NCBI GenBank assembly: GCA_034723395.1
Contig: JAYEOW010000028.1
Coordinates: 1-39,468, forward strand
Length of the DNA: 39,468 bases
From: Candidatus Margulisiibacteriota bacterium
GTDB lineage: Bacteria > Margulisbacteria > WOR-1 > O2-12-FULL-45-9
Direction of reading: 5' to 3'
Part shown: piece by piece, positions 2,421 through 32,915 of the stretch
Layout: each line of letters starts with the position of its first letter
Numbering within the stretch: the first letter of the stretch is position 1
Notes under the pieces: model-generated
Seen by the model: the letters and a program-made list of their open reading frames with translations, nothing else
The model's database searches: none
Told to the model about the DNA's origin: nothing
Translations under genes and position numbers: made by a program

Positions 2421-2468
2421 TCTTTGTATCAATTACTTTTTTTGTTTCAATTTAAGAGCTAATTCAAA

Positions 2469-3955
<1,487 letters not shown>

Positions 3956-3979
3956 TAAGGAGTTAACGTTCCTTAAGTG

Positions 3980-4033
3980 TCCCGACGACATTATATAAAT
4001 AATGGAAAGTCGGGATCCCGATGAAAATCGGGA
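3980..4033. repeat. Two adjacent TCCCGA(C/T)...(G/A)TCGGGA palindromes
   Basis: TCCCGAC (3980) / GTCGGGA (4009) with inner CATTAT/ATAATG, then TCCCGAT-GAAA-ATCGGGA. Confidence 0.6.
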
Positions 4034-4063
4034 GAACATAGCTTCAGGTCGATCTCGCATCAA

Positions 4064-4104
4064 GTTCCCCCGAGCGAAGCCGATTTATCGGCTGAGTCGA
4101 GGGG
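4064..4104. repeat. REP-like palindrome inside the 3' arm of the 16S processing stem
   Basis: Reverse complement CCCCTCGACTC-AGCCGATAAATCGGCT-TCGCTCGGGG has the same architecture as 135-170. Confidence 0.7.
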
Positions 4105-4131
4105 TTCTCGCGTCTAGTTTTGAAAGATATT

Positions 4132-4169
4132 AAAGCGTACATTGTATTTATATGATGTACGCTTTTTTT
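4132..4169 (+). terminator. Intrinsic terminator of the 16S transcript
   Basis: AAAGCGTACAT / ATGTACGCTTT stem running into a T7 tract. Confidence 0.85.
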
Positions 4170-4185
4170 ATGTTAAAATAATCGA

Positions 4186-5025
4186 ATGAGAATACTATCC
4201 GTTTTAGTTTTACTGAATTTGCTGATCTCTTCGGTCTGTGGATTGGGCATTGTTACAAGCCCGAAAATTGCCTGGCAGGGGAAAGTCTTGAAGGTAAAGT
4301 TGATCTCTGCTGAGGGGATATCAAGCGTAAAAGGTTCGTTCCTGGGCCGAAAATTCCCCTGTTATAGGAAAGGTGATGATTACCGCGGGATCATCGGGGT
4401 GCCGATCAACCAGAAACCGGGCTATTATGACCTTAGATTAATCGTCACCAAAGACGATGGGAGTATCGTAACCCTAGAAGAAAAGATGAAATTATGGCCT
4501 ACGAGGTTTCCCTTCTCAAAGTTTTGGTTAAAACCTTCCCGTAACAAGCTGCGTTCTCCAAAGATCGTGAATAATGAGTGGGGGCGGATCGAAAAAGTCT
4601 TGATCGCAAAGGATCCAAAACAGCGCTGGGAAGGGAAATTCATCAAGCCGCTCGATAGTATAGTAACTCAGGGATTTGGTCATCGGCAGATTATAAATGG
4701 CCGGAGGGCGGGGAGCCATCGCGGGGTCGATTACCGGGCGAAAATAGGGACGCCAATCAAGTCCCCAAATAATGGTGAAGTCGTCTTTGTCGATAAGTTG
4801 AAGGCATTTGGTGGAACTTTGGTAATAGACCATGGGCAGGGGATCCATACCCTTTATTTTCACCTGTCAAAGATCGTGCCCGAGGTCGGGGATGAAGTAA
4901 AAAAAGGGGAGATAATCGCGCTTTCTGGGAATTCCGGGGTCTCTTCGGGCCCGCACCTGCATTGGGGAATGTCGGTGCATAATCTAAGGGTTGACCCCGA
5001 TCAATGGGTGAAATATGACATCTAA
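4186..5025 (+). CDS. M23-family metallopeptidase (peptidoglycan endopeptidase-like), exported
   Basis: Signal peptide; zinc motifs HRGVD and GPHLH; IDHGQGIHTLYFHLS. Confidence 0.9.
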   Translation: MRILSVLVLLNLLISSVCGLGIVTSPKIAWQGKVLKVKLISAEGISSVKGSFLGRKFPCYRKGDDYRGIIGVPINQKPGYYDLRLIVTKDDGSIVTLEEKMKLWPTRFPFSKFWLKPSRNKLRSPKIVNNEWGRIEKVLIAKDPKQRWEGKFIKPLDSIVTQGFGHRQIINGRRAGSHRGVDYRAKIGTPIKSPNNGEVVFVDKLKAFGGTLVIDHGQGIHTLYFHLSKIVPEVGDEVKKGEIIALSGNSGVSSGPHLHWGMSVHNLRVDPDQWVKYDI

Positions 5026-5452
5026 CAGGAAACTGGCAACTGGCAACAGGCGACACATTTTAAGAATTATAGATGCTAATACCAATCGAGCTGTAGAAGG
5101 TCTAAGGGTAATAGAGGAAGTGGCCAGGTTTATTCTTAATAAAAAGTTGTTAACGAAGCAGCTTAAGAACATGCGCAGCTGTTTGCGGCAGGCGGCCAAA
5201 GAGATTGATCCTATCCTCGGACGAAAAGTCCTGAAAGATGTCGGCAGGAAGAGCTATACAAAAAGTGAAAAGAAAAGAAGCTCGGTAAAAGATGTTTTTA
5301 CCGCGAACGCAAAAAGAGTTCAGGAAGCTTTAAGGGTGTTGGAAGAATTTGCCAAGCTGTCCGATCCAAAGTTAGGGAAGATATATAAAGATGAGAGATT
5401 TAAGCTGTACGCAATAGAAAAAAAAGTTACGCGTGCTTTGCCAGTATCCTAG
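5015..5452 (+). CDS. Stand-alone ThiD2-like domain (N-terminal domain of cyanobacterial-type ThiE)
   Basis: RIIDANTNRAVEGLRVIEEVARF and ANAKRVQEALRVLEEFAKL...RFKLY motifs. Confidence 0.75.
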   Translation: MTSNRKLATGNRRHILRIIDANTNRAVEGLRVIEEVARFILNKKLLTKQLKNMRSCLRQAAKEIDPILGRKVLKDVGRKSYTKSEKKRSSVKDVFTANAKRVQEALRVLEEFAKLSDPKLGKIYKDERFKLYAIEKKVTRALPVS

Positions 5453-7613
5453 CCGCGAGTTCGGGGTTCCCCGCTTCTTCGATCAGCCGTACAAAATTCC
5501 TTAACTGCTCTTTTTTGACCGCCGGGGGGATGCTTTGCAAGGTCAGGAAAAGCTGTTTGTGGTCGGTGTCTGCCTTCAGGGTCGATTTAATATCCCTGAT
5601 CTTATTCTCCGGATTATCGGGTTGGGCCTGGTTGGCGGTGAGAAAGCTGTAGGCGTATCGGGTGTAGAAGGTGACCAGGGGCAAAGCGTAATTTGGATCG
5701 TTCCGGCGCGCCGCCTCGTTGATTGGGCTGGGGATCATGTTCCAGATGATATTATTTTGTCCTCTCAGGATATCAATGGCCCTTTGGGCGGAAAAAAGGT
5801 TGCTGCGGGTGACTTCTGTCACCAGAAATTCGGTAAACTTATCAGCATTGCGGAAAGATCTTTCGCCAGACAGCTTGTCTCCCTTCGCTTCAATATAACG
5901 TGTAAGATTATCAAAGAAGGGGATCCGAATGTATTCTATCTCGTCCCTGCCGTCGATTTTTTCTAGATCATGGAATAAAACCATGGTTTCTGTTGTAGGG
6001 TATTTTCCATCCCTTAATAATCCCATTAATTCCTGAATTTTAGCGGCAATAAACACAAGTGCTTTTGCGTCCTTGCTGGTTAGCGTTCCCGTATCCCTTT
6101 GGTATTTATTTGATTTTGCGAAGGAAAGGATGGTTTCTCTGATTTCTTCGGGGATGCTTTTATCTGCAAAAACAGGGATTTTCCCCAGGTCGGCTTCGAG
6201 AACGCTCCTTACCGCTTGCAGGGCCAGGGATTTACCTAGTTTCCCCTTGGCAACGGTAAAACTTTCCGCTTGGTTGTATATGCCTGGGGGAAGATTTGCC
6301 GGTTCAGACAGCCTGTCATACACATATGTCAGTAGAACGTCGATACCCTGACGGCTTTGGACGGCTTCATGGATAATAGGATTTAATACCCGCGAGGACA
6401 AATCTCTCATTTTTATTCCAAAAAAGGCCAGGATAGGTTTGTACCACGAATATTGCCGGTCATATTCCTGTAATAACTGCGGAAGAGCTTCGGGAAGCTG
6501 GTTTAAGATACCTGAAATAACTTTTACTTTCGCCTGGTCGGCTTCCTGCTGTGCCCCCTTGATAAAGGAATTGTGGTAGGCATTCTTCAGTTCGTTGACC
6601 AGCGTGGGGATCAATCCCGGATCGGCCCGCAGAAGGCTCGCTGCCAGGCGGATAGAATTGTCGACCACGTCATTTTTTTCATTTTTAGAGCGCAGATCTA
6701 CTGCGGTCTCCAGCAGCGCGGGCATGCTCTCGCGCGGCGTTTCTTTAAGTACCTCTTTGACGACATCCCGGCCTTTAGTTCTCGTGACTACGGCCGAGGT
6801 CATAATTTCGCTCCGGGTATTTATAGCATTTTGGGTTATTCTGATCACATATCCCTTATCGATCATTGCTTTAAGCGCTGCCCGTTCTTCGTCGCCTTTT
6901 TCCTCCCTGAGCTTATCTCTTGCCCTTTTTGTCTGCCGGTTCTTGTCCGCTTCGATCTCCACCGCCTCGATCCGCTGTTTTTCGAAGGCCACACGCATAG
7001 TAATATTTAAAAAATTGACAGTTGCCGTGAATCGCTGTTCTTGTTTTTGTTGTTTGTTGTCAGTATCCAGGTTTTTCCTTAGCCTGGCCATCATTAGGTT
7101 CATTGTGTACATGAAGTAGCGGAGGTTGTTCCCGGTTGTCAGGAAGTTGATGGTCCTTTGGTTGGTAATGTTCCCTTTGATAAATCTTTCAGCGGCTTCA
7201 TAAGTGGACCGATGGAAGCTAAATTGCGGGTCGCAGAGTTCGCCGTAAAGATAGAAAAGATTAACCTGATAAAGCTCCAGCCCTTTGTTCATCATTCTGT
7301 AAGGGTCGGAAACTAACCTGGTCAACCCATCAAGAAAACGAGGACGAAAGTCAATTTGCGGAACTCCTGCGCAATTTAATATCGAACTATAACGATGCGA
7401 AAATCCGGTCCACAACGTCGAATGGTTTCTTCCAAGCGGGGGGCGAAACCGGATGGCCTTTCTGGTGGCAGGGCGATAACTGCGGGGAGAAAAGGAGTAA
7501 GCCCTTCTGGCAAGGACGGAACGGCCGTTTTTCCTACTGGAGGTCCTGCGTTTCCACCAGTTTTTTATTCTGGTGCGCCATGAAATATTTGTATTTTTTA
7601 TCGCTTTTGCCAT
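5427..7613 (-). CDS. Large hypothetical, probably helical protein (728 aa)
   Basis: Long uninterrupted ORF; very basic N-terminus; charged coiled-coil-like stretch; no family recognised. Confidence 0.75.
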   Translation of the reverse strand: MAKAIKNTNISWRTRIKNWWKRRTSSRKNGRSVLARRAYSFSPRSYRPATRKAIRFRPPLGRNHSTLWTGFSHRYSSILNCAGVPQIDFRPRFLDGLTRLVSDPYRMMNKGLELYQVNLFYLYGELCDPQFSFHRSTYEAAERFIKGNITNQRTINFLTTGNNLRYFMYTMNLMMARLRKNLDTDNKQQKQEQRFTATVNFLNITMRVAFEKQRIEAVEIEADKNRQTKRARDKLREEKGDEERAALKAMIDKGYVIRITQNAINTRSEIMTSAVVTRTKGRDVVKEVLKETPRESMPALLETAVDLRSKNEKNDVVDNSIRLAASLLRADPGLIPTLVNELKNAYHNSFIKGAQQEADQAKVKVISGILNQLPEALPQLLQEYDRQYSWYKPILAFFGIKMRDLSSRVLNPIIHEAVQSRQGIDVLLTYVYDRLSEPANLPPGIYNQAESFTVAKGKLGKSLALQAVRSVLEADLGKIPVFADKSIPEEIRETILSFAKSNKYQRDTGTLTSKDAKALVFIAAKIQELMGLLRDGKYPTTETMVLFHDLEKIDGRDEIEYIRIPFFDNLTRYIEAKGDKLSGERSFRNADKFTEFLVTEVTRSNLFSAQRAIDILRGQNNIIWNMIPSPINEAARRNDPNYALPLVTFYTRYAYSFLTANQAQPDNPENKIRDIKSTLKADTDHKQLFLTLQSIPPAVKKEQLRNFVRLIEEAGNPELAARILAKHA

Positions 7614-15015: not shown

Positions 15016-15044
15016 TTGACAAAAAACATTTTTACAAGTAAGAT
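15016..15044 (+). promoter_or_regulatory. sigma70-type promoter of the lipid cluster
   Basis: TTGACA, 17-nt spacer, TAAGAT; GGAGG SD before ATG 15134. Confidence 0.7.
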
Positions 15045-15133: not shown

Positions 15134-16279
15134 ATGGATTTTTCACTTGACGAGAACCAGCAAATGTATGTGGGTTTGGCTAAGGATTTTGTTAAAAAGG
15201 AGATACAACCCAAAATATTGGAGCTGGATAATAAGCACGACTTCCCGCGCGATATCATGAAGAAAGCATGGGAAGTGGGGTTTATGAACCTGTGTGTTTC
15301 GGAAGAATATGGTGGATTAGGGGCCGATCCGATTGCAATTGCATTGATTGTCGAGGAAATTGCTTATGGATGTTCTGGTATTGCAACGTCGGTTATGTGC
15401 AATGATTTGGCAAATGCGGTAATTGCAATCCATGGCAGCCATGAACAAAAGGAAAAGTTTTTAAAACCCTTTACAGAAAAACCACTTCTTTCAAGCTTTT
15501 GTTTGACTGAGGCGGAGGCGGGATCTGACAATTTGGCCATGACAACTTTTATCAAAAAAAGGGAAGATGGCAAGTATGTATTAAATGGGACCAAGCAATT
15601 TATTACCAATGCTACATATGCTGACCAATATTCGGTTTTTTGTAAGCTTAGTAGTGTAAAATCACAATTAATGTCTTGTGTTATTGTTCCCAAAAATCCA
15701 GAAGAAGGAAAAGTTATCCCTGGAAAACCCGAAGCCAAATTAGGGCAACATCTTTCAAATACAGCAGAAGTTACTTTCGAGGATGTTGTTGTTGATCCTT
15801 CTCAAATTATTGGGAACCGACGCTTAGGTTTCAAATATTTAATTGACGTTCTTGATTATTCAAGGCCTATGATCGCGGCCATTGGAGCTGGGATTGCGCG
15901 CAAGGCTTATGATCTTACTTTAGAATATACAAAAAATAGAGTCCAATTTGGTACGCGCATTTGTGATATGCCTGTTGCGCGTGAAACCTTAGTTAAGATG
16001 TACAATAAAATGAGAGTTGCTCAAGTTATGACCCAATACTCTGCTTGGAAACTCAAAGAAAATCATGAAGATAAAGGAATCTATGCTTCACTAGCAAAAA
16101 ATATGGCTGCTGAAGCCTGTATTTTCAATGCTAATGAAGGCCTACATTTACATGGAGGTTACGGATTCACTTCAGAATATGAGATTTCAAAATTGGCCCG
16201 TGACGCGCATATTATTGATATTTATGAAGGTACGCGCGAGGTACAAACCATGATTCAAGGGCGGGAGTTAGTTTCTTAG
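15134..16279 (+). CDS. Acyl-CoA (possibly acyl-ACP) dehydrogenase
   Basis: FCLTEAEAGSD, NGTKQFITN, RVQFG, HGGYGF, IYEGT with the catalytic Glu. Confidence 0.92.
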   Translation: MDFSLDENQQMYVGLAKDFVKKEIQPKILELDNKHDFPRDIMKKAWEVGFMNLCVSEEYGGLGADPIAIALIVEEIAYGCSGIATSVMCNDLANAVIAIHGSHEQKEKFLKPFTEKPLLSSFCLTEAEAGSDNLAMTTFIKKREDGKYVLNGTKQFITNATYADQYSVFCKLSSVKSQLMSCVIVPKNPEEGKVIPGKPEAKLGQHLSNTAEVTFEDVVVDPSQIIGNRRLGFKYLIDVLDYSRPMIAAIGAGIARKAYDLTLEYTKNRVQFGTRICDMPVARETLVKMYNKMRVAQVMTQYSAWKLKENHEDKGIYASLAKNMAAEACIFNANEGLHLHGGYGFTSEYEISKLARDAHIIDIYEGTREVQTMIQGRELVS

Positions 16280-16281
16280 CT

Positions 16282-16938
16282 GTGGAAATATTTATAAATG
16301 ATGAAGAATTATCAAATGTTAGTTTTGGTAATAGCACTTATCAGAAAAAAATAATCGATCAAAAAGCGGACGCCAATTGGGTTTGCAGGTTGCCGCACGG
16401 ACCGATGAAGATGCTGGACCGGGCGTGGTATGATTTTGAAAAAGGCAAAGGCAAGTATGGCAAAGGCTATCTGCGCGCTGAAAAAGACATAACCCCTGAC
16501 GACTGGTATTTTTATGCCCATTTTCTGGGTGATCCTGTAATGCCCGGGACAATTGGGATCGATGGTTGTTATCAATGCTTGGGGACAACTCTTTTGATCA
16601 TGGGCTGCAAAGGAGTTGCGCGTGCCCTCGCAGGGAAATTTGAATATACAGGGCAGGTTTTAACCAGTGTCAAGAAAACTGTATATCGTATGGATATTAA
16701 ACGCTTTTTTTCAAAACCTTCTCCATTATTAATTGCGGATGTAGACTATTTTAAAGATGATGATAAAGAGCCTATTTATAAATTAAGAGATGCCAGGATG
16801 GGTTTTTTTAAAGAGGGGGAGCTGGAGAGATCGCCTGCTTACCGACCGGACTGGAACAAAGTAAAAGAAAAAGCTTTGGCAGAAATTGATGCGAGTAGAG
16901 AGTACTATCTTAAGAATTTTGGGAAAGAAGGCTATTAG
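16282..16938 (+). CDS. fabA: FabA-type 3-hydroxyacyl-ACP dehydratase/isomerase with terminal extensions
   Basis: RLPHGPMKMLDR and HFLGDPVMPGTIGIDG (His/Asp dyad as in FabA), GQVL. Confidence 0.8.
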   Translation: MEIFINDEELSNVSFGNSTYQKKIIDQKADANWVCRLPHGPMKMLDRAWYDFEKGKGKYGKGYLRAEKDITPDDWYFYAHFLGDPVMPGTIGIDGCYQCLGTTLLIMGCKGVARALAGKFEYTGQVLTSVKKTVYRMDIKRFFSKPSPLLIADVDYFKDDDKEPIYKLRDARMGFFKEGELERSPAYRPDWNKVKEKALAEIDASREYYLKNFGKEGY

Positions 16939-16940
16939 CA

Positions 16941-17849
16941 TTGTATATAAATTGTCTTAAGAGCTATTTCCCAGATGAGATTTTAGATAACCGTTTTTTT
17001 GAAGAACGTCTTGATACGACAGATGACTGGATTGTTTCAAGGGTGGGGATAAAAGAACGCCGCAGATGTAATAATGATCAGCCCACACTTTTTTTGGGTG
17101 TTAATGCGGTAAGCCAGATTCCCAAGGAGCACTTAGAAGGAGTTGATTGCCTGGTAGTTGGGGTGTCGATTACCCAGTGGCAGATCCCGGCTACCGCCAA
17201 TCTTATTGCAGAAAAGCTTGGATTAGATGGTATTCCATGTTTTGATGTGCGTGCGGCTTGTAGTTCTTTTGTTTATGGGCTTAGGGTTATTAAGGGGTTG
17301 TTAGCTACCGGGTTTAAGAAGATTTTATTTGTTGTGCCTGAAGCCTACACAAGTGTGGTTGATTATAATGACCGTTCGTCATCAGTATTATGGGGAGATG
17401 GCGCCATAGCTTGTGTTATTTCTGGACAGGCACAAGGGCTGGAAGTTCTTGACCTGCTTATAAACTCAAAATCTTCCGGAGCCTACAAGGTGGCTGCCCG
17501 GGTAGGAGGTTATTTTTTTCAGGAGGGGACTAAGGTCCAAAGTTTTGCAGTGCGCTATAGTATAAAGGTTTCGCAGGAGATGCTCTCTAGAAATAATGTG
17601 TCCAGTATCGATTATCTGGTACTGCATCAGGCCAATTTGGTGATGATGAAGTCTGTCGCAAAAAATTTGGGGATAGAGGAGAATCGTCTTTTACATAATA
17701 TCGAACGCTATGGGAATACAGGGGCGGTGGGAGCCGCCTCGGTGCTTGCTGAAAATTGGGAAAAGGTAAAGGCCGGCGAGAAAGTGCTTATAACGGTGGT
17801 CGGGTCAGGACTTTCATGGGGATCAGTGTTGCTTAGGAAAAAAGGATAG
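16941..17849 (+). CDS. fabH: Ketoacyl-ACP synthase III family protein
   Basis: DTTDDWIVSRVGIKERR, AACSSF, HQAN, YGNT (Cys-His-Asn triad), GSGLSWG. Confidence 0.85.
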   Translation: MYINCLKSYFPDEILDNRFFEERLDTTDDWIVSRVGIKERRRCNNDQPTLFLGVNAVSQIPKEHLEGVDCLVVGVSITQWQIPATANLIAEKLGLDGIPCFDVRAACSSFVYGLRVIKGLLATGFKKILFVVPEAYTSVVDYNDRSSSVLWGDGAIACVISGQAQGLEVLDLLINSKSSGAYKVAARVGGYFFQEGTKVQSFAVRYSIKVSQEMLSRNNVSSIDYLVLHQANLVMMKSVAKNLGIEENRLLHNIERYGNTGAVGAASVLAENWEKVKAGEKVLITVVGSGLSWGSVLLRKKG

Positions 17850-17872
17850 ATAAAACATCATGTTTTTGACTC

Positions 17873-17902
17873 TTGATTTAATGTGTAAGGAAAGTATATA
17901 AT
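17873..17902 (+). promoter_or_regulatory. Internal promoter upstream of fabZ
   Basis: TTGATT, 18-nt spacer, TATAAT, 7 nt before ATG 17910. Confidence 0.55.
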
Positions 17903-17909
17903 ACATGAA

Positions 17910-18389
17910 ATGTTGTTAAAACCAACTGATATATTGCCGCAGCAGCAGCCCTTTTTGTTTTTGGACGAATATGTCGAGTTGGACGCAAAGCACTGTCTTG
18001 CAAAATATACGTTTAAGAAAGATGAGTGGTTCTTTTCCGGCCATTTTCCCAATAACCCGGTAGTTCCCGGGGTTGTGTTGATCGAGGCTATGGCCCAGGC
18101 GGGCGTGGTAAGTATCGGGATATTTAATCTTGCCCAAAAGTATAATATTCCTTTTGCTGAAGTAAAAAATCAGCGTTTGGCATTGTTTACCAAGGTAAGG
18201 GAGGTTGAGTTTTTGGAAACGGTCAAACCTGGAGAAACTGTGTTTATTTCATGTCACCAGATATTTTACCGTTTTAATAGGTCGGAAACAGTTGGAGAAG
18301 TATATAAAATGGTGAATGGGGAAAGGAGGATCGTTTGCACTCATAAAAGTATATTCGGCCAAGGAGTAAAAATTGTTAAGGGAGGGTAA
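17910..18389 (+). CDS. fabZ: FabZ-type 3-hydroxyacyl-ACP dehydratase
   Basis: LPQQQPFLFLD and GHFPNNPVVPGVVLIEAMAQ (His/Glu dyad). Confidence 0.85.
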   Translation: MLLKPTDILPQQQPFLFLDEYVELDAKHCLAKYTFKKDEWFFSGHFPNNPVVPGVVLIEAMAQAGVVSIGIFNLAQKYNIPFAEVKNQRLALFTKVREVEFLETVKPGETVFISCHQIFYRFNRSETVGEVYKMVNGERRIVCTHKSIFGQGVKIVKGG

Positions 18390-18391
18390 AA

Positions 18392-18649
18392 ATGGAAAGA
18401 AGTGAAGTCATTAAAGGTTTAAAAGAAATTTTGGCTCCTTATTTGGGAGTAGAGAAAGATAAGTTAGAGGCAGCGGTCGAGACAACTGATATTAATAACG
18501 AACTGGGAGTAAAATCAACCGATACAGTAAACATTGTTTTGGATTTGGAAAACAAATGGGACATAGCTTTCGAAGATGAAGAGATTGATGGGTTAAACGA
18601 AGTAACTATCAAATCTGTTACTGATCTTGTTATGTCAAAAAAATCTTAA
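18392..18649 (+). CDS. Acyl carrier protein with a non-canonical LGVKST attachment motif
   Basis: 85-aa acidic protein; ELGVKSTDTVNIVLDLENKWDIAFEDEE aligns with DLGxDSLDxVELVMxLEExFxIxIxDEE. Confidence 0.85.
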   Translation: MERSEVIKGLKEILAPYLGVEKDKLEAAVETTDINNELGVKSTDTVNIVLDLENKWDIAFEDEEIDGLNEVTIKSVTDLVMSKKS

Positions 18650-18661
18650 GGAGTAACTTGT

Positions 18662-19945
18662 ATGGCTGATGTTGCAATTGTCGGGATGGGGGTTGTTAAT
18701 TCGCTGGGCAATGATCTGAACACCTTTTCTGAAAGTCTTCAGCAGGGGAAAATTGGCTATAAAACGATTCCGCTTCACGAGCAGTTAAATTTCAGGTCAA
18801 AAATTGCCAGTTATCCGGATGAGTCTAAAATCGATTACCAATCTTACGGAATAAAAATGCAGGATCTCTTAAGCTGCGATGATGTTGCCAGGTTTACTCT
18901 GGCGGCGGCTTCCCAAGCGGTTAGACAGGCCGGCATAAGTGAGGAAATGCTCAGGAGCCCTGATTGTGGGGTTTTGATTGGTTCCGGCTTGGGCGGGGGG
19001 AATGAATTTGCCGATCTTACTTTTTTATTGACCAATAGGCAACCGGTCTTTACAAAAGAGAAGAAGTGGAAGGTAGTTAATCCCAGGCCGAGAAATGTGG
19101 GGAGCCATAAAGTAGATTCCACCATGGCTTCTACTTGTTCGGCAAATACCTCGGTGTTCTTTAAAACCCAGGGGATGGGGGAGTCTTTAAGTTCTGCCTG
19201 CAGCACAGGTCTGGGAAACATTGGATATGCCTATCGCATGATCAAACACGGCTATCAAAAACGGGTGATATGCGGGGGGTCCGAGACCTCTTGTTGGAAT
19301 GTTGCCGCGGGCTTTGATGCTATGATGGTATTGTCTCCTACCGGTTCGCTTTCCCTGTCGGGAGAGAGGAGTGGTTTTGTAGCTGGAGCGGGGGCCGGCA
19401 TAGTTGTTTTGGAAGAACTTCAAAGCGTCCTGGATAGAGGGGCCAAACCCCTTGCTGTAATCAAGGGATTTTACAGCGGTTGCTGCGGCAGTGGGAATAT
19501 GACGGCTCCTTCCAGGGAGGGCCAGATTCGTTGTGTCGAAGGCGCCCTGGCGGATGGGCACCCAAATTGGGAAAGCAAGTTTGGGAAGGGCTGGAAACCG
19601 GATATCGTAAAATTACACGGCACCGCTACTCCTACCGGCGACGCAATTGAAGTCAAGTCGGTAGTTGAGTGTTTTGGTAAGGAAGGTTATCATTTAACCG
19701 CTCCCAAGGCTTTATTCGGCCATTTATTAGGAGCAGCCGGGTCAGTGGAATTAATATGCGCGGTGGATATGCTGCAGAAGGGTTATGTGGTTCCAAATAT
19801 TAATTGCGACCCTCTCGACCCTGAGTTGGAGTTTGTAACCCACCTCATCCCCAGGAAAATTGTTAAAGGGGATTTTAAGACCGCACTTTGCATATCTTTT
19901 GGTTTTGGCAGCACGAATGCCGGGATGATAATTGAAAAGGTATGA
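18662..19945 (+). CDS. Ketoacyl-ACP synthase I/II (FabB/FabF family)
   Basis: SSACSTG, HGTATPTGD, KALFGHLLGAAG (Cys-His-His triad), SFGFGSTN. Confidence 0.9.
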   Translation: MADVAIVGMGVVNSLGNDLNTFSESLQQGKIGYKTIPLHEQLNFRSKIASYPDESKIDYQSYGIKMQDLLSCDDVARFTLAAASQAVRQAGISEEMLRSPDCGVLIGSGLGGGNEFADLTFLLTNRQPVFTKEKKWKVVNPRPRNVGSHKVDSTMASTCSANTSVFFKTQGMGESLSSACSTGLGNIGYAYRMIKHGYQKRVICGGSETSCWNVAAGFDAMMVLSPTGSLSLSGERSGFVAGAGAGIVVLEELQSVLDRGAKPLAVIKGFYSGCCGSGNMTAPSREGQIRCVEGALADGHPNWESKFGKGWKPDIVKLHGTATPTGDAIEVKSVVECFGKEGYHLTAPKALFGHLLGAAGSVELICAVDMLQKGYVVPNINCDPLDPELEFVTHLIPRKIVKGDFKTALCISFGFGSTNAGMIIEKV

Positions 19946-20706
19946 GCCGTTACCTTCGGGCCCTTTTACGGCTGCAGTCTTTTCTTTCCTGGATTTTTTG
20001 TGTTCTCGTTTTTGCTCCTGTTATTTTGGTAATTTCCCGTTTTTATTCTATCAAGGTTTACGGAAAAGGTAATTTAGGTAATCTTAAAGGGCCTTTGATC
20101 ATCGTAAGCAATCACCTCACCTTGATCGACTCATTATTTATTGGATTTGTAGTGGCTTTTCCGCAATCATATTGGAAGCCGCGGCGGCTAACCTGGCATT
20201 TGCCCGAAGCTACAAATTATTCCAGAGGGATGCTTGCCCCGTTGGTTTGGCTCGGCAGATCCATCCCTATTTTGAGGAACGTGCCGCCCGGGGAGCAAAA
20301 ATCGGCAAAGGATAAAGTTATCTGTGTTCTTAAAAATAAGGAATTAATTCATATCTTTCCTGAAGGGACCCGGAGCCGGACCGGTAGAGTTGAGAGCTTC
20401 ACCAACGGCATTGGCAGGATATACATGCGAGTGCCGGATTGCCGAGTCCTTCCTGTGTATATCAGGGGGAGTGAAAATGTTTTGCCTGTTAATTGCAAGT
20501 TCCCTAAGCTTTTTAAAAAGATCGATATCGTTATTGGGAAACCCCAAAAACTGGCGTCTGAACAAAAAGGGCTAAGGGCTGCAGTTGATATTTCTGAACA
20601 AATTTATGCTATTTTAAAAGGTATGGAAAATGAGTATTTTGAGGGCAAAATGTACAGGGCCTCGGAAATAATTGGGGAGAACACAGGTTGTGAAGATATT
20701 AATTAA
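19942..20706 (+). CDS. PlsC-family lysophospholipid acyltransferase
   Basis: NHLTLID (HxxxxD), FPEGTRS, N-terminal hydrophobic helix. Confidence 0.88.
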   Translation: MSRYLRALLRLQSFLSWIFCVLVFAPVILVISRFYSIKVYGKGNLGNLKGPLIIVSNHLTLIDSLFIGFVVAFPQSYWKPRRLTWHLPEATNYSRGMLAPLVWLGRSIPILRNVPPGEQKSAKDKVICVLKNKELIHIFPEGTRSRTGRVESFTNGIGRIYMRVPDCRVLPVYIRGSENVLPVNCKFPKLFKKIDIVIGKPQKLASEQKGLRAAVDISEQIYAILKGMENEYFEGKMYRASEIIGENTGCEDIN

Positions 20707-21409
20707 TGCCATAAAATTTTTGCAGGTCTTTTGTGTGATTGTTTACGCTTATATTGCGCGGCCGTACCATCTCTTTGTTTATTATTTTGACCGGAGAGCG
20801 TATTATCGGGCTATCCATTCCAGTTCTAAGTTTATTCTTTTTTGCCTGGGCATCAGGGTTTCACTTTTTGACCCAAAAAACATACCCAAACCCGGCGGCG
20901 CGTATTTGATTGCTGCCAACCATCAGAGCTATATGGATAGTAATATTTTATCGAGTTTGATCCCCTGTGTTTTTATCCAGCGCCCGGTCTCATATCTCCC
21001 GGGTATTTCCTGGCATTTTGGCAAGATGTCATTAATCATTAAGCGTGACAGTCCTGCCAGTATTATCAAGGCTGTTCGATATGTAAAAAAAGTGGCTATT
21101 GATCAACAGACTCCAGTTGTCATGTTCCCCGAATCTACACGTAGTGTCGATGGGTCTCTTGGAAATTTACGGTTGGGGGTTGCAACGATTGCAAAAAATT
21201 TAAAGATACCAATTTTACCTATCACTATCTTCAATTCCAGAGAAGTTTTAGCTAAAGGCAAGGCTATTCATGATGCTGGCGCTGTTTACGTCGCAGCTCA
21301 AAAACCAATTGATGGGAATTATGTGCAAAACCATTCCGTTGAAGAAATAACCGGGGAAATTAGGGCGAGGCTGCAGGCCGGCCTGGATTCTATTGGCCAG
21401 AGAATTTAA
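20672..21409 (+). CDS. Second PlsC-family acyltransferase (start uncertain)
   Basis: NHQSYMD, FPESTRS, PILPITI. Confidence 0.85.
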   Translation: MGRTQVVKILINAIKFLQVFCVIVYAYIARPYHLFVYYFDRRAYYRAIHSSSKFILFCLGIRVSLFDPKNIPKPGGAYLIAANHQSYMDSNILSSLIPCVFIQRPVSYLPGISWHFGKMSLIIKRDSPASIIKAVRYVKKVAIDQQTPVVMFPESTRSVDGSLGNLRLGVATIAKNLKIPILPITIFNSREVLAKGKAIHDAGAVYVAAQKPIDGNYVQNHSVEEITGEIRARLQAGLDSIGQRI

Positions 21410-21411
21410 TT

Positions 21412-21768
21412 ATGACTTTTGCGGTTGGGAATGATATAGTATTTATTCCGGACTTTGAAAAAAGCCTTTCCGAGCCTTTTAAAAAGCGGGTGTTTTCCGA
21501 GCTCGAAATTGATCAGATAGAAAAATACAAAGCCTGTCCGCTTATAAGGTATGCCAGCACCTGGGCAGCCAAAGAATCCGTGGTTAAGGCGCTCAGGCAG
21601 GTCTTTGACGGGGGATTGGGCCTGGCCTGGAAGGATATCCAGGTTATTAGGGAAAACAAAATACCCGGGGTACGGATATTAATGCCCCGCTATTCACAGT
21701 TATCTTTCTCTTTATCCCTCAGCCATGATCGTGACTATGCTTTCGCGGTGGTTGTTTTAAAAAAATGA
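21412..21768 (+). CDS. acpS: Holo-ACP synthase (AcpS-type phosphopantetheinyl transferase)
   Basis: VGNDIV, WAAKESVVKA, SLSHD; 118 aa. Confidence 0.88.
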   Translation: MTFAVGNDIVFIPDFEKSLSEPFKKRVFSELEIDQIEKYKACPLIRYASTWAAKESVVKALRQVFDGGLGLAWKDIQVIRENKIPGVRILMPRYSQLSFSLSLSHDRDYAFAVVVLKK

Positions 21769-21833
21769 GAGCCCCGGCTGAAGCTCTCAAACAATAGCTG
21801 AAATTACTCCTCTTTATTTCTGATAAATACTTG

Positions 21834-22436
21834 ATGACTTTTAATATTTGTCCGCCAGCAAATTCATATGTCCGTAGGAAAATACTCCCTTTCTATGCTC
21901 AAAAAAGGGCGCGAATAAGGAGGCCTCTTATAGAACGCGCGCGCGAGGCCAGGGATAAACTGGCCATTAATTATTCCCAGGCGGTCGATTATTGGTGGCG
22001 CGAAGAGTTCCAGCTGGGGGGGGGGAATATATTTTCAATTAAGAACGAAGCGAAAAACGCCGATGGAAAACAGATCTCTCTGGTCATTTCGCATTTCGGA
22101 TCGATCTTTCAGGATTCTGATGTCCAGATCAGGTGCAGGGAATCGGGAGCCAGAGATTATACGGCTGTTATTGACGCTACCCCTTTTGGCGGTGACAAGA
22201 TTTTTCATATCCGGTTTGTGGTGGTACGCAATAATTTGATCGATCTGGCATCAATCCGTTCGGAAGCTAAGGGCTATGGAGGAAAAGGATTGACCGCGCT
22301 TTATAATTTTGCCAAGGATATCGGATGCCGCGAGATCATCTACACTCCCAAGGATGATAGCGCCCGGCGGTTCTATTTACATATGGATTTTATTAGTGCG
22401 GCATCACAAGACCTTTTTAGGCTTCGGATTTCATAG
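21834..22436 (+). CDS. Hypothetical protein with a C-terminal GNAT-like fold
   Basis: KGYGGKGL...ARRFYLHMDF resembles GNAT motifs A and B; start at ATG 21834 or TTG 21831. Confidence 0.5.
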   Translation: MTFNICPPANSYVRRKILPFYAQKRARIRRPLIERAREARDKLAINYSQAVDYWWREEFQLGGGNIFSIKNEAKNADGKQISLVISHFGSIFQDSDVQIRCRESGARDYTAVIDATPFGGDKIFHIRFVVVRNNLIDLASIRSEAKGYGGKGLTALYNFAKDIGCREIIYTPKDDSARRFYLHMDFISAASQDLFRLRIS

Positions 22437-24551: not shown

Positions 24552-25091
24552 ATGAGAGAAAAAGAGACCAAGCGGGAAAAGATATATAAAGGGACCCTGC
24601 TGGGTTTAAGGAGAGATACGGTTAAGCTGCCGAATGGAAAAAGTTCGACCAGGGAGATCGTGGAGCATCCGGGGGCAGTTGCTGTAGTGGCGATAACTAA
24701 AGATAAGGAGCTAGTTTTAGTCCGCCAATTCAGGAAGCCGACCGAGCAGGTATTGCTCGAGATCCCTGCCGGTGTTCCAAAGAAAGATGAAAAGCCGGAT
24801 GTCTGCGCAAGAAGGGAACTTGAGGAAGAAACCGGTTTCCGTGCCAAAAAGGTTAAAAAAGTTTGGGAAGGCTACGCGTCTCCCGGATATTCGGACGAGC
24901 TGATCCAGTTTTGCGTTGCTGAGGACATGACTAAGCTTAAGCAGAATATGGATGAAGATGAGTTTATCGAAGTAGATATTGTAGATATAGATGCCTGTTT
25001 TGATATGTTAAAAGCGGGGAAGATCCGTGATAACAAGACGATGGTCGGGATCACCCTGGCGGAAATGTATATAAATGGAGAAATATCTTAA
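24552..25091 (+). CDS. nudF: NUDIX hydrolase, ADP-ribose pyrophosphatase type
   Basis: REIVEHPGAVAV, LEIPAG...ARRELEEETG, SPGYSDE; start taken at ATG 24552. Confidence 0.85.
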   Translation: MREKETKREKIYKGTLLGLRRDTVKLPNGKSSTREIVEHPGAVAVVAITKDKELVLVRQFRKPTEQVLLEIPAGVPKKDEKPDVCARRELEEETGFRAKKVKKVWEGYASPGYSDELIQFCVAEDMTKLKQNMDEDEFIEVDIVDIDACFDMLKAGKIRDNKTMVGITLAEMYINGEIS

Positions 25092-25950
25092 AGACTTTCT
25101 GGATTTTATAAAGATCGAACGCGGTTATTCGGAGAATACCGTCAAATCTTACCAAAAAGATCTTAATGATTTTACAAAATATTCTAAGATAAGAGAGTCG
25201 CGATATGTGAGACGTGATATTATAAAAACCTATCTTGAATATTTATACGATAACGGATTCTCAGTCTCATCTGCCGAAAGAAAGCTCGCCTGCCTAAAAT
25301 CATTTTTTAAATATTTTTTACGCGAAGGAAAGATCGATAAAGATCCGACCGGGGATATTAAACTTCCCAAGAAGGCGAAGCGTTTGCCAAAGGCTTTAGG
25401 GATTGGCGAAACTATCCGCTTGATCTCTTCACCGCGCGAAAAAGATCATATCTCGATGCGCGATGCGGCGCTGCTCGAAATGTTATACGCCACCGGAATG
25501 CGCGCTTCTGAAATAGTCGGATTGGATATCGCCGATATTAACCTTTCGGTATCATTCGTTCGCTGTTTAGGGAAAGGTTCTAAGGAGCGGATCGTTCCGA
25601 TCAATAAAGTTACGCTAAAGGCGATCAAGGTCTATCTTGAAAAAGGGAGGTTGGAGTTCCCGCAAAAAGATGATAAGGCGCTATTTTTAGATAAGAATGG
25701 AAAACGTTTGGGACGCCAGGGACTATGGTACATAATTAAAAAATATGTTAAGAAGTCGGGGGTAAAAGGAAAAACTTCTCCGCATACTCTTCGCCATTCG
25801 TTCGCTACCCATCTTTTAGAAAAAGGAGCTGACCTGCGTTCGGTCCAGGAGATGCTGGGGCACGCGGATATCTCGACCACGCAGATCTACACTTCGGTGT
25901 CGCGCGAGAGGCTAAAAAGAGTGTATAATAAAGCGCACCCTAGGGCTTAA
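25075..25950 (+). CDS. xerD: Site-specific tyrosine recombinase XerD
   Basis: YATGMRASE, GKGSKER, SPHTLRHSFATHLL, LGHADISTTQIYT, HPRA C-terminus. Confidence 0.9.
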   Translation: MEKYLKDFLDFIKIERGYSENTVKSYQKDLNDFTKYSKIRESRYVRRDIIKTYLEYLYDNGFSVSSAERKLACLKSFFKYFLREGKIDKDPTGDIKLPKKAKRLPKALGIGETIRLISSPREKDHISMRDAALLEMLYATGMRASEIVGLDIADINLSVSFVRCLGKGSKERIVPINKVTLKAIKVYLEKGRLEFPQKDDKALFLDKNGKRLGRQGLWYIIKKYVKKSGVKGKTSPHTLRHSFATHLLEKGADLRSVQEMLGHADISTTQIYTSVSRERLKRVYNKAHPRA

Positions 25951-27802: not shown

Positions 27803-29407
27803 ATGCCCGCACCCAGACAAATTCTATCTTTAATCGACCGCTTTGATCAGCATACCGCCGCCGCGGGTGGCGCTAAAATAGAACTTAACGACCGTTTTAA
27901 GCAGGCGCTTGAGCTTCTTGAGAATACCGGGCGAAACGTTTTTATAACCGGCCGGGCGGGCACCGGCAAATCGACCCTTCTGGAATATTTCCGCCTGATC
28001 ACTAAAAAGAGGATTGTAGTGCTTGCTCCGACAGGGGTCGCGGCCTTGAACGTCAAAGGCGAGACCATTCACTCCTTCTTTCGTTTCAAGCCCGACATCA
28101 CTCTTAATAAAATAAAGAAGATCAAATTCAAAAAGGGGAAGAAAAATATCTACAAGGGCGTTGACGCGGTCGTAATCGACGAAATATCCATGGCGCGGTC
28201 GGACCTGCTTGACTGTGTAGACAAATTTCTCCGCTTGAACGGACCGAATCGAAATAAACCCTTTGGCGGGGTGCAAATGATCTTTATCGGCGACCTTTAC
28301 CAGCTGCCTCCGGTGGTGACCGGGCAGGAAAAGGGGATATTCAAAGGGCATTACGATAGCGAGTATTTTTTTGACGCCAGGAGCTTTTCCGAACTTGACA
28401 TGGAATATATCGAGCTGGAAAAGGTCTACCGCCAGAAGGACGAAAAATTCATTGCCCTGTTGAACGCGGTCAGGAATAATTCGGCCGGGGACAAAGAGAT
28501 CGCGCTTTTGAATAAGCGGCTTGACCCGGATTATGAGCCGAAGGATGAATATCGCATTTGCCTGACCCCGACCAACCGCATGGCAAAAGAGATAAATGAG
28601 CGGAGGTTGGCGCGGCTTAAGGGGAAAGCGGTCGTTTTTCAGGGGGAGATAAGGGGAGATTTCGAGCTTAAGCGGCTGCCGACCGAACGGGAACTGGCAC
28701 TGAAGAAAGGCGCGCAGGTAATGATGCTCAACAATGATTCGATGCGGCAATGGGTCAACGGCACTCTGGGCGTGGTTAGTGAGATCGGGGACGGGGTGGT
28801 GGAGGTCGAGCTTGAAGACGGCGGCTCGGCGATAGTTGAGCCTTATAAATGGGAAATTTTTCATTTTACTCTTGACGGCAAGGGCGGTCTCGCGACCGAG
28901 CCGGTCGGTTCTTTTACTCAATTGCCGATGAAGCTTGCCTGGGCGGTGACCATTCACAAGAGCCAGGGAAAGACCTTTGACCGGGTAATTATCGATCTGG
29001 GGCGCGGGACGTTCGCTCACGGCCAGCTTTATGTGGCCCTGAGCCGCTGCCGGTCGCTTGCCGGCATAGTTTTGAAAAAACCGGTCAAGAATGGACATAT
29101 ACTCATGGACTGGCGGGTGGTGAGGTTTGTGACCGGTTATCAATATCAATTATCGGAGAAGAGGTTTTCTTTTGAAGATAAGATCGCTTTGATAGAAGGA
29201 GCGATCAAAAACAGGCGCGGGCTGGAAATAACTTACCTGAAGGCGCAGGATGTGAAGAGTAAAAGAACGATCGAGCCGCTGGAAGTCGGCGAAATGGAAT
29301 ACAAAGGCAAGCCCTTCATCGGGTTAAGGGCCTTTTGCCGCCACCGCAGGGAAGAAAGATGCTTTCGGGTGGACCGTATGCTGGAAATAAAAGAGGTTGA
29401 CCTTTAG
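27803..29407 (+). CDS. PIF1-family SF1B helicase with C-terminal WYL domain
   Basis: GRAGTGKS, APTGVAA, IDEISM, GDLYQLPPV, AVTIHKSQG, YVALSR; C-terminal RTIEP...LRAFC..R.EERCFRVDRM WYL pattern. Confidence 0.9.
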   Translation: MPAPRQILSLIDRFDQHTAAAGGAKIELNDRFKQALELLENTGRNVFITGRAGTGKSTLLEYFRLITKKRIVVLAPTGVAALNVKGETIHSFFRFKPDITLNKIKKIKFKKGKKNIYKGVDAVVIDEISMARSDLLDCVDKFLRLNGPNRNKPFGGVQMIFIGDLYQLPPVVTGQEKGIFKGHYDSEYFFDARSFSELDMEYIELEKVYRQKDEKFIALLNAVRNNSAGDKEIALLNKRLDPDYEPKDEYRICLTPTNRMAKEINERRLARLKGKAVVFQGEIRGDFELKRLPTERELALKKGAQVMMLNNDSMRQWVNGTLGVVSEIGDGVVEVELEDGGSAIVEPYKWEIFHFTLDGKGGLATEPVGSFTQLPMKLAWAVTIHKSQGKTFDRVIIDLGRGTFAHGQLYVALSRCRSLAGIVLKKPVKNGHILMDWRVVRFVTGYQYQLSEKRFSFEDKIALIEGAIKNRRGLEITYLKAQDVKSKRTIEPLEVGEMEYKGKPFIGLRAFCRHRREERCFRVDRMLEIKEVDL

Positions 29408-29467
29408 GATTTGACTTTTAATCTTTGCTGGTATACGCTTGTATACAAAAGAATATGAGAGGAAGGT

Positions 29468-30499
29468 ATGGGTAATTCAGGAAATTTAGCGCCTCGGGAA
29501 TCGGATTTTTTACTTTACACGGCTCCGGATGGAGATGTCCGCGTGGATGTTTTTTTTCATGGTGAAACTGTCTGGCTGACCCAAAAGCGGATGGCCGAGC
29601 TTTTTGGGGTTGAGGTTAATACTGTTAACTATCATTTAAAAGAAGTGTTTAAAAGCGCGGAATTAAGCGAAATATCAGTTATTCGAAAATTTCGAATAAC
29701 TGCCGCGGACGGCAAGACATACGAAACGCAGTTTTACAATCTGGACGCTATTATTTCGGTCGGCTACCGCGTAAATTCGGAAAAAGCGACAAAATTCCGC
29801 ATCTGGGCTACACAAATGCTCCGCAATTATATTATCAGGGGATTCGCGCTGGATGATGAGCGGTTAAAAAACGGACTTCATTTTGGGAAAGACTATTTTG
29901 ACGAGTTGCTGGAAAAAATACGCGAGATCCGGGCCAGCGAGCGCCGTTTTTATCAGAAAATTACCGATCTTTACGCGGAAGCAAGCATTGATTACGACAA
30001 AGATTCCGAAATAACGCAGAAATTTTATAAAACGGTCCAAAATAAGCTCCACTGGGCGATTACCGAAAAAACCGCGGCGGAACTGGTTGCGGAGAGGGTG
30101 GACAACGCCAAACCGAAAATGGGACTAACCACGTGGAAGAACGCTCCCAAAGGGAAAATCCTGAAGCCGGATGTGGCGATTGCCAAGAATTATCTCCGGG
30201 AAAGCGAACTTTCCGATTTAAACCGGATTGTTACCATGTATCTTGATTACGCGGAGAATCAGGCGAAGAAGCAGCGGGCGACGACCATGAAAGATTGGGC
30301 GGAGAAGCTTGACGCGTTCCTGGAATTTAACGAGTATGAAATACTGGATAATCCCGGCAGGGTTTCTCATGAAGTGGCCAAAAAATTAGCTGAGGAAGAA
30401 TTTGAAAAATATCGCGTCTGTCAGGATCGCGAATTCATATCCGATTTTGACATTGAAACAAAAAAGTATTTGAACGCGGATGACAAAAAGAGGGAATAA
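29468..30499 (+). CDS. RhuM-family DNA-binding protein
   Basis: VWLTQKRMAELF, YNLDAIISVGYRVNS, FRIWAT, IREIRASERRFYQK. Confidence 0.9.
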   Translation: MGNSGNLAPRESDFLLYTAPDGDVRVDVFFHGETVWLTQKRMAELFGVEVNTVNYHLKEVFKSAELSEISVIRKFRITAADGKTYETQFYNLDAIISVGYRVNSEKATKFRIWATQMLRNYIIRGFALDDERLKNGLHFGKDYFDELLEKIREIRASERRFYQKITDLYAEASIDYDKDSEITQKFYKTVQNKLHWAITEKTAAELVAERVDNAKPKMGLTTWKNAPKGKILKPDVAIAKNYLRESELSDLNRIVTMYLDYAENQAKKQRATTMKDWAEKLDAFLEFNEYEILDNPGRVSHEVAKKLAEEEFEKYRVCQDREFISDFDIETKKYLNADDKKRE

Positions 30500-30506
30500 T
30501 CCGGAC

Positions 30507-30680
30507 ATGACGGCACCCAAACAAATTCTATCTTTAATCGACCGTTTTGAGCGGAATATCGAGGCTTATAAATCGGGCCGCTATAATGAGGCCCAGATCA
30601 GGAATGAGTTTATTAATCCTTTTTTCGAAGCGTTGGGGTGGGATGTTTATAATGAAGAAGGGCGCGCCGAGGTTTTATGA
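30507..30680 (+). pseudogene. N-terminal stub of a restriction-modification enzyme (HsdR_N / type IIG-like)
   Basis: YNEAQIRNEFINPFFEALGWDV is typical of the nuclease-domain start of fused RM enzymes; stops after 57 codons, overlapping the cas3 ATG. Confidence 0.7.
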
Positions 30681-32905: not shown

Positions 32906-32915
32906 GGAGGCTTTT

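Follow-up and report, generated by a model that had tools for sequence, protein, structure and literature searches.

A putative accessory fatty-acid synthase in a Candidatus Margulisiibacteriota genome, with an acyl-CoA dehydrogenase-family flavoprotein as its candidate enoyl reductase

The window analyzed here, 39,468 nucleotides of DNA from a Candidatus Margulisiibacteriota bacterium, an uncultured anaerobe, is one entire contig (C28) of a 1.68-Mb metagenome-assembled genome that comprises 55 contigs and is rated 97% complete. Between positions 15134 and 21768 it carries nine co-oriented, tightly packed open reading frames (ORFs) on the plus strand, spaced in order by 2, 2, 60, 2, 12, -4, -35, and 2 nt, which encode an acyl-CoA dehydrogenase (ACAD) family flavoprotein, FabA-, FabH-, and FabZ-type enzymes, an acyl carrier protein (ACP), an elongating ketoacyl-ACP synthase (KS), two PlsC-family acyltransferases, and AcpS. 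An earlier sequence-only reading of this DNA had described such a nine-gene cluster with intact catalytic motifs, and the ORFs, the Pfam and NCBIfam profile searches that gave the gene identities, and the residues in the translations bear it out. We posit, with confidence that is evenly balanced for the whole chain of steps, that the cassette is an accessory type II fatty-acid synthase that probably makes unsaturated chains and in which the ACAD is the enoyl reductase.

In the proposed scheme, AcpS would activate the variant ACP and the cassette would work on its own carrier protein; FabH would start the chains, and the KS would extend them with malonyl units. Keto reduction and malonyl loading would be supplied by FabG and FabD, each present once in the genome, from a primary fab operon on contig C29. 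The FabZ-type and FabA-type hot-dog enzymes would dehydrate, and the latter would probably also isomerize trans-2 to cis-3 at one chain length, giving rise to cis-unsaturated chains. Each cycle would end with the reduction of trans-2-enoyl-ACP by the ACAD, which would take its electrons from the only electron-transfer flavoprotein of the genome, the EtfAB of the C29 operon, and the two acyltransferases would place the finished chains on a membrane glycerolipid.

Of the steps in bacterial fatty-acid synthesis, enoyl-ACP reduction is the most variable, and the reductase is a major target of antibiotics; the known enzymes, FabI, FabL, FabV, and FabK, represent four structural classes, and we know of no ACAD-family enzyme that carries out this final reduction. 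If our proposal is correct, ACAD-type reductases would constitute a fifth class, would explain fatty-acid synthesis in those Syntrophales that are without any known reductase, and would connect flavin-based electron transfer with the way anaerobes make lipids, perhaps allowing some energy to be recovered. More tentatively, and with somewhat less than even confidence, we suggest that ACAD flavoproteins form an unrecognized class of enoyl-ACP reductases in strict anaerobes of at least two phyla, fed by Etf proteins (possibly bifurcating ones, with reduced ferredoxin produced in each elongation cycle), and that the enzyme described here is the matched reductase of an acquired unsaturated-fatty-acid module. 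The cassette may also represent an anaerobic route to unsaturated fatty acids outside the Proteobacteria; new here is its reduced, mosaic form, found in a second phylum and in a variable chromosomal slot.

The ACAD gene and the reductase position

The ACAD gene travels with fab genes. In each of the ten close metagenome loci (L087 to L096), it immediately precedes the FabA-like gene, and L088/L089 (one sequence from two records), L090, L092, and L096 retain the order ACAD-FabA-FabH-FabZ-ACP-KS-(acyltransferases)-AcpS. A scan that used an alignment of ten cassette ACADs as the query found 80 further loci with 58 to 64% identity, all from Syntrophales or unclassified 'Deltaproteobacteria', and 47 of these share the order ACAD-FabH-FabA-FabG-FabZ-KS-PlsC. 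At least one fab gene stands beside the ACAD in 75 of the 79 loci with a full ACAD match; in the other four the ACAD is alone, contig ends not having been checked. Conservation of the dehydrogenase with fab genes, on which the sequence-only reading had staked its proposal, is thus borne out in both sets of loci.

The complete genome of Syntrophus buswellii DM-2 is the most telling of these cases. Its operon reads FabD-like-ACAD-FabH-FabA-FabG-FabZ-KS-PlsC-phosphopantetheinyl transferase (PPTase); genes for a sigma-54 activator and a histidine kinase precede it, and those for MlaE/MlaD follow it. For an ACP gene between KS and PlsC, the evidence is a blast match in a related locus (L247) and not in S. 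buswellii itself. The genome has two PF07977 genes in all, which both belong to the cassette, and because these are its only FabA/FabZ genes, the cassette, judged by gene content, must serve bulk fatty-acid synthesis. All three of its adh_short_C2 proteins have FabG models on top, and no FabI, FabL, or FabK-type protein was found in it; a search without a positive control gave no FabV match, and MDR-family or other unrecognized reductases were not searched for. Among the genes recognized, the ACAD is the only candidate left for enoyl reduction. Literature searches returned no publication on the ACAD-led cassette of Syntrophales.

The Syntrophales cassettes share with the window an orthologous ACAD in the company of FabH, FabA-type, FabZ-type, KS, ACP, PlsC, and PPTase genes, but they also include a FabD-like and a FabG-like gene, and they are under sigma-54 control; the window cassette has a KS of another clade. 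The degree of relatedness differs from gene to gene: the window ACAD is 61% identical to the Syntrophus ACAD, whereas FabH, FabA, and KS are only 31 to 34% identical to the Syntrophus versions and reach 41 to 43% with those of Myxococcota and Chloroflexota. By these identities the window cassette is a mosaic, its ACAD nearest to Syntrophales and its KS, FabH, and FabA nearest to Myxococcota/Chloroflexota.

Related cassettes found by a scan with a ketosynthase alignment and by synteny analysis reveal what occupies the ACAD position elsewhere. A Myxococcales locus (L058, the same as L169) has the order PPTase-FabL-like-FabA-FabZ-ACP-FabH-KS, followed by a fatty-acyl-reductase-like gene, with FabH, KS, and FabA 43, 42, and 41% identical to those of the window; its FabL-like short-chain dehydrogenase/reductase (SDR) gene is directly upstream of FabA, where the window has the ACAD. 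A FabL-like gene also precedes the KS in a Kofleriaceae locus (L170), and about 70 Sphingobacteriales loci, together with Verrucomicrobiota and some uncultured Bacteroidota, have the arrangement FabG-like-(FabA-like)-hot-dog-ACP-KS-FabI-like-AcpS. No SDR reductase was present in any cassette that carries the window-type ACAD. It looks as though the reductase module has been exchanged between cassettes, a flavoprotein being used in anaerobes and NAD(P)H-dependent SDRs in other lineages. The suggestion of the sequence-only reading that the dehydrogenase runs in reverse as the missing enoyl reductase fits this slot replacement, the linkage to fab genes across two phyla, and the Syntrophus genome in which no other reductase was found.

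The Sphingobacteriales loci deserve mention in their own right. In L171 to L246 (for example, L177:8430-12500 from Pedobacter sp.), a compact six-gene mini-synthase, whose carriers include cultured Pedobacter, Mucilaginibacter, and Daejeonella as well as Verrucomicrobiota, consists of a FabG-like gene, a hot-dog protein without a Pfam match, an ACP, a KS, a FabI-like gene, and AcpS. We know of no described function for it, and our literature searches did not turn one up.

Cassette proteins and the rest of the genome

The three-domain architecture of the ACAD is clear (103.9, 76.1, and 124.3 bits, all over the Pfam cut-offs), and its catalytic Glu365, in a YEG motif that aligns with 1UKW and with the pig medium-chain acyl-CoA dehydrogenase (MCAD), is invariant across 10 orthologues. 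Its best match in the PDB is 1UKW/MCAD (244 bits), and its best NCBIfam match is AcrC, at 289.8 bits vs. a cut-off of 640. The features that mark reductive ACADs of the Bcd/AcrC type, an equivalog score and adjacent etfAB genes, are both missing, the AcrC score being under its cut-off and etfAB being found only on C29. A predicted complex of two ACAD copies with the cassette ACP scored 0.27, the mark being 0.32.

The FabA-like protein falls just short of one FabA model (PRK05174, 123.6 bits vs. a cut-off of 124) and well short of the equivalog (TIGR01749, 120.9 vs. 238), but its His80/Asp94 dyad, in which FabZ has Glu, is invariant in 16 family members, and comparison of the active-site strip with proteobacterial FabA confirms a dyad of the His70/Asp84 type. 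A hot-dog tree rooted on FabZ, obtained from a small sample by a quick search, unites all FabA-like proteins in one clade (SH-like approximate likelihood-ratio test, SH-aLRT, 99) and groups the window type and its Bacteroidota relatives with proteobacterial FabA and Marinimicrobia (98). The family is small: a word-indexed search of 5.8 billion proteins gave 16 members with 57 to 100% identity, and 145 other genomes of the phylum gave a single match, inside a 1303-aa ORF. Used singly as the query against genome contigs, the FabA-like protein found no relatives; an alignment query was needed. In its own genome it is the only gene of the FabA type.

The KS stands apart from the 7 FabB and 2 FabF-type sequences placed in a tree with it and reaches 248.6 bits with PRK07967 (cut-off, 630). 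In a quick-search tree of 25 rows it belongs to a clade of accessory synthases from Myxococcota, Chloroflexota, Bacteroidota, Verrucomicrobiota, and Brocadiaceae (SH-aLRT 97), separate from FabB, FabF, and the Syntrophales KS; a KS that is 82% identical is found on another Candidatus Margulisiibacteriota contig (L167). The Brocadiaceae member, from a metagenome-assembled genome of this anammox family (L188:13-4102), is followed by a methyltransferase, AcpS, and a FadL-type outer-membrane protein. The cassette FabH is 30% identical to the primary FabH and lies just below the cut-off of NF006829 (236.5 vs. 249), and FabZ models give the FabZ-type protein 79 bits, under their cut-offs. In the cassette ACP, aligned with 5 orthologues and AcpP, Ser42 lies in an invariant GVKSTD motif (KST, not DSL), where the housekeeping AcpP has GADSLD. 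A second AcpS of the genome is encoded on contig C51. Elsewhere in the genome (C36:7518-8485), a third ACP-like ORF, 26% identical to AcpP, adjoins another PlsC-like acyltransferase gene and may form with it a further private ACP-acyltransferase pair.

Both acyltransferases exceed the PF01553 cut-off (66.1 and 63.5 bits). Orthologues of the first are found in L092 and L096 (59 to 60% identity) and one of the second in L092 (50%), but the complement varies: one to three PlsC-like genes lie upstream in L087 to L091, both acyltransferases lie downstream in L092, and L096 has the first alone. The neighborhoods are rich in lipid genes. In L090, the cassette is preceded by genes for a lysyl-phosphatidylglycerol-synthase-like domain, PlsC, a CDP-alcohol transferase, and CarS-like proteins and followed by those for a cyclopropane-fatty-acid synthase and a diacylglycerol kinase; in L092, four PlsC genes, a CarS-like gene, and genes for MGDG synthase and cyclopropane synthase precede it. 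The two PlsC-like enzymes had been proposed to load the product on a special lipid; support for loading onto a membrane lipid comes from this context of glycerolipid genes in related loci. A role in biotin/pimeloyl-ACP or lipoate synthesis was set aside, as there are no bio or lip genes nearby and the acyltransferases and glycerolipid neighbors point to membrane lipid; an aryl-polyene or type II polyketide synthase-like cluster was likewise rejected, since there is only one KS, FabH is present, and a chain-length-factor partner is lacking.

Two of these loci have further genes of interest. L096 carries, upstream of its cassette (1553-7258), a FabH/HMG-CoA-synthase-like gene, a thiolase, and a DUF35/ChsH2-type OB-fold protein, an archaeal-style trio, as well as four CoA-transferase subunits; another copy of the cassette-type ACAD lies at 220-1377. 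A stretch adjoining the L090 cassette (17117-20637) encodes a GNAT-domain protein, a small ACP-sized ORF, a second ketosynthase, and a class I/II aminotransferase and may be an aminolipid- or sphingolipid-type module.

Table 1. The cassette genes and nearby features, with positions in the window
Feature	Position	Strand	Details
Promoter-like site	15016..15044	+	TTGACA-17-TAAGAT; 10/12 consensus match, ~90 nt 5' of ACAD start
Ribosome site	~15123	+	AGGAGG; good site ahead of ACAD start
ACAD-family flavoprotein, proposed enoyl-ACP reductase	15134..16279	+	381 aa; PF02771/PF02770/PF00441
FabA-family 3-hydroxyacyl-ACP dehydratase, possible isomerase	16282..16938	+	218 aa; PF07977; N- and C-terminal extensions
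FabH-type ketoacyl-ACP synthase III	16941..17849	+	302 aa; PF08545/PF08541; Cys107/His229/Asn258
FabZ-type dehydratase	17910..18389	+	159 aa; PF07977; His45/Glu59
Dedicated ACP	18392..18649	+	85 aa; weak ACP matches, 37 bits at best; Ser42
Elongating KS	18662..19945	+	427 aa; PF00109/PF02801; Cys180/His319/His354 invariant
PlsC-family acyltransferase 1 (AT1)	19942..20706	+	254 aa; PF01553; HX4D: HLTLID at residue 58, FPEGTRS
PlsC-family acyltransferase 2 (AT2)	20672..21409	+	245 aa; PF01553; HX4D: HQSYMD at residue 84
AcpS-type phosphopantetheinyl transferase	21412..21768	+	118 aa; PF01648; TIGR00556 62.6 vs. cut-off 45.35
10-bp GC-rich hairpin	21766..21789		directly 3' of AcpS; T-run on minus strand only
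hyp201	21831..22436		201-aa ORF between AcpS and thiL; Atlas structure search: GNAT-like folds, TM ~0.5, lead only

The separate canonical fab operon for which the sequence-only reading had left room does exist: contig C29 encodes plsX-fabH-ACAD-etfB-etfA-fabD-fabG-acpP-(FabK-like NMO protein)-fabF, with a ferredoxin fused to EtfA. FabD and FabG are single-copy in the genome and both lie in this operon; FabZ is fused to LpxA on contig C17, and the sole other adh_short_C2 protein is a generic SDR. The Pfam and NCBIfam searches found no ketoreductase, malonyl transferase, or known enoyl reductase within the cluster. The absences reported by the sequence-only reading (FabG, FabD, and an enoyl reductase, the last as far as known types go) are thus real, but its description of the cluster as self-contained did not survive, for the synthase, ketoreductase, dehydratase, enoyl reductase, malonyl transferase, and ACP of such a system are not found together there: the cassette is a second fatty-acid system, dependent on FabG and FabD from the primary operon. 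In L096, the cassette is immediately followed by a yceD-plsX-fabH-ACAD-etfB series whose products are 55 to 78% identical to those of the primary operon here.

As for the known reductases and etfAB, a FabK-like protein and one etfAB are present, both in the C29 operon, and a FabV search of the genome gave no match, although no positive control gave a signal in any genome. The FabK-like NMO protein (C29:8165-9124, between acpP and fabF) scores 199 bits with the FabK model TIGR03151 (cut-off, 453) and matches FabK of T. maritima, its best PDB match, about as well as H. pylori FabX (153 vs. 149 bits). It is probably a reductase of known type, yet it may instead be a FabX-like desaturating enzyme, and the choice between the two bears on the role of the C29 ACAD-EtfAB.

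Just two ACADs are encoded in the genome, each in a fab cluster and with 35% identity between them, and there is a single EtfAB, which is ferredoxin-fused and resembles the subunits of acryloyl-CoA reductase (AcrAB-like). Genome searches found no ECH_1 match, no thiolase, and, of 3-hydroxyacyl-CoA dehydrogenase, only short Rossmann-fold fragments; therefore, neither beta-oxidation nor butyrate fermentation supplies CoA substrates. This genomic context, together with the fab genes beside the Syntrophales ACADs, argues for an ACP thioester rather than a CoA thioester as the ACAD substrate. The same searches found no ETF:quinone oxidoreductase, no membrane desaturase, and no cyclopropane synthase. 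A role in making unsaturated chains is suggested, short of proof, by the placement of the FabA-like protein in the FabA clade, by its His/Asp dyad, by the lack of any other FabA or of a desaturase in the genome, and by the cyclopropane synthases that neighbor the cassette in L090 and L092.

Competing roles for the ACAD

Known systems offer partial precedents. The closest functional one is the fabI-fabN-fabO operon of E. faecalis, in which, according to Dong and Cronan 2022 (PMC9671860), a matched reductase is kept with an isomerase and a ketoacyl-ACP synthase I, apart from the main operon with fabK. As there, a separate small operon in the window genome combines a candidate reductase, a dehydratase/isomerase, and an elongating synthase while a FabK-like protein resides in the main operon; unlike there, an ACAD takes the place of FabI as the candidate reductase, a FabA-family protein that of the FabZ-like FabN as the candidate isomerase, and the cassette adds its own ACP, AcpS, FabH, and acyltransferases. 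With the E. coli FabA/FabB branch the cassette shares a FabA-family His/Asp enzyme beside an elongating KS, plus a FabZ-type dehydratase, but its KS is outside the FabB clade, its FabA-like protein is under the equivalog cut-offs and extended at both ends, and its ACP is private. Bcd-EtfAB, CarCDE, and AcrABC are described in PMC5691135 and PMC12630350 as ACADs of anaerobes that reduce enoyl-CoA with an electron-transfer flavoprotein. The window enzyme resembles them in family and catalytic Glu, in the acryloyl-CoA-reductase-like EtfAB of its genome, and in the proposed reduction of an enoyl thioester; it differs in its proposed ACP-bound substrate, in the lack of an etf gene in the cassette, and in equivalog scores far under the cut-offs. 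Our literature searches, which did not cover subscription journals, retrieved no paper on the ACAD-FabA pair or on the cassette, and no characterized pathway matched the cluster, in keeping with the sequence-only reading, which had put it forward as a candidate for an undescribed pathway.

Several observations weigh against an ACAD that reduces enoyl-ACP. Among solved structures, the enzyme matches oxidative medium-chain dehydrogenases best (244 bits), with Bcd (213) and CarC (194) behind them. The primary operon encodes a FabK-like protein, and a cassette that has to rely on outside FabG and FabD could also draw on an outside reductase. In Chloroflexota (L168), a cassette with the order AcpS-FabA-FabZ-FabH-KS has no reductase gene, so the slot is not obligatory. 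No etf gene was found in or beside any ACAD-type cassette examined, and the literature searches, within the same coverage, found no ACAD that reduces enoyl-ACP. Finally, two cassette-type ACAD copies are present in each of L093 and L096, a hint of more specialized roles.

This last point would suit an ACAD that acts as a tailoring enzyme, adding or removing one double bond (for example, alpha,beta or gamma,delta) to yield a special, possibly conjugated or polyunsaturated lipid, a role that we consider unlikely. ACADs that depend on an ACP or a peptidyl carrier protein do exist (the window enzyme gives 140 bits with the prolyl-ACP dehydrogenase structure 4IRN and 40 to 179 bits with the MbtN, PigA, and RedW NCBIfam models), and a private ACP, a PPTase, and acyltransferases are what specialized lipid pathways use. 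The MbtN, PigA, and RedW matches are, however, all far under their cut-offs; the single elongating KS has no chain-length-factor partner; and the cassette of S. buswellii, with the only FabA/FabZ genes of that genome, would serve bulk synthesis, for which an enoyl reductase is needed. The same Syntrophus genome would be left without any enoyl reductase if the ACAD acted on a CoA thioester to prepare a primer for FabH, for example by converting crotonyl-CoA to butyryl-CoA as Bcd does. FabH takes acyl-CoA primers, the ACAD gene adjoins FabH in Syntrophales, and the top NCBIfam matches are CoA enzymes (AcrC, 290 bits), but the window genome has no crotonase match, real 3-hydroxyacyl-CoA dehydrogenase, or thiolase with which to make enoyl-CoA, and we regard this use of the enzyme as very improbable.

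The idea favored by the sequence-only reading was a two-protein analogue of FabX, in which the ACAD would oxidize a saturated medium-chain acyl-ACP to trans-2-enoyl-ACP, the adjacent FabA-type protein would isomerize the product to the cis-3 form, and the KS would extend it to unsaturated fatty acids. Acyl thioester oxidation needs a high-potential acceptor, about -10 mV, whereas no ETF:quinone oxidoreductase was found in the genome, whose sole Etf is ferredoxin-fused and acryloyl-CoA-reductase-like. Furthermore, a FabA-type enzyme makes trans-2-enoyl-ACP by dehydration, so a dehydrogenase would be needless, and in the commonest Syntrophales order (47/80) the ACAD is followed by FabH and only then by FabA, in an operon with a ketoreductase and two dehydratases but no reductase. 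On the other side, a gap of 2 nt separates the ACAD gene from the FabA-like gene, the two adjoin in all ten close loci, the solved ACAD relatives are medium-chain dehydrogenases, and relatives of this genome are without the cassette, which makes it an add-on, as expected of an unsaturation module. H. pylori FabX (PMC8626469) acts on acyl-ACP as a dehydrogenase/isomerase, and the two systems would have in common a flavoenzyme linked to anaerobic-type unsaturated synthesis on acyl-ACP. Yet FabX is an FMN enzyme of the NMO/FabK family with a [4Fe-4S] cluster that oxidizes and isomerizes within one protein, whereas the window enzyme is an ACAD, without these FabX features, and more likely works reductively. 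We consider such an analogue quite unlikely and retain the ACAD as the candidate enoyl reductase of an accessory synthase.

Chromosomal setting and neighboring features

The region 3' of the cassette, thiL-M20-Nudix-Xer-M50, is also found in two genomes of the same family (L334 and L337), in which thiC is followed by 1.1 to 1.8 kb of unrelated cargo and then by these same genes; the cargo is a 474-aa protein at L334:6783-8207 and a 310-aa protein on the opposite strand at L337:4791-5723. The thiC-thiL gap thus seems to be a variable insertion site in related genera, and because L334 and L337 hold unrelated cargo between the same flanking genes, the cassette, together with an unconserved GNAT-like ORF (hyp201), is by synteny the cargo of this slot here. 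That ORF was left out of the cassette, as it has no Pfam or NCBIfam match and no homologue in any related cassette locus. Base composition is uninformative as a sign of transfer: the GC content of the cluster is 42.7% vs. 45.3 +/- 2.3% for the genome, and 11% of equal-sized windows are as low.

The strong promoter that the sequence-only reading placed ahead of the cluster comes down to a single consensus match, and the region shows no enrichment of matches of this kind over shuffles (21 vs. 15.8 +/- 3.8). The hairpin behind AcpS was not taken as a plus-strand terminator, its T-run being confined to the minus strand.

Outside the cassette, the window contains a full-length 16S rRNA gene that stands alone at 2469-3954, the next gene encoding an M23 peptidase (4186-5025); no 23S rRNA or tRNA gene follows it and no tRNA was found anywhere in the window, which looks like an unlinked rRNA arrangement. 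A Xer-type recombinase is encoded at 25075-25950, and positions 27803-37931 hold a type I-C CRISPR-Cas system (cas3, cas5d, csd1/cas8c, cas7, cas4, and cas1), ahead of whose cas genes lie those for a RhuM-family protein and a PIF1-type helicase with a WYL domain.

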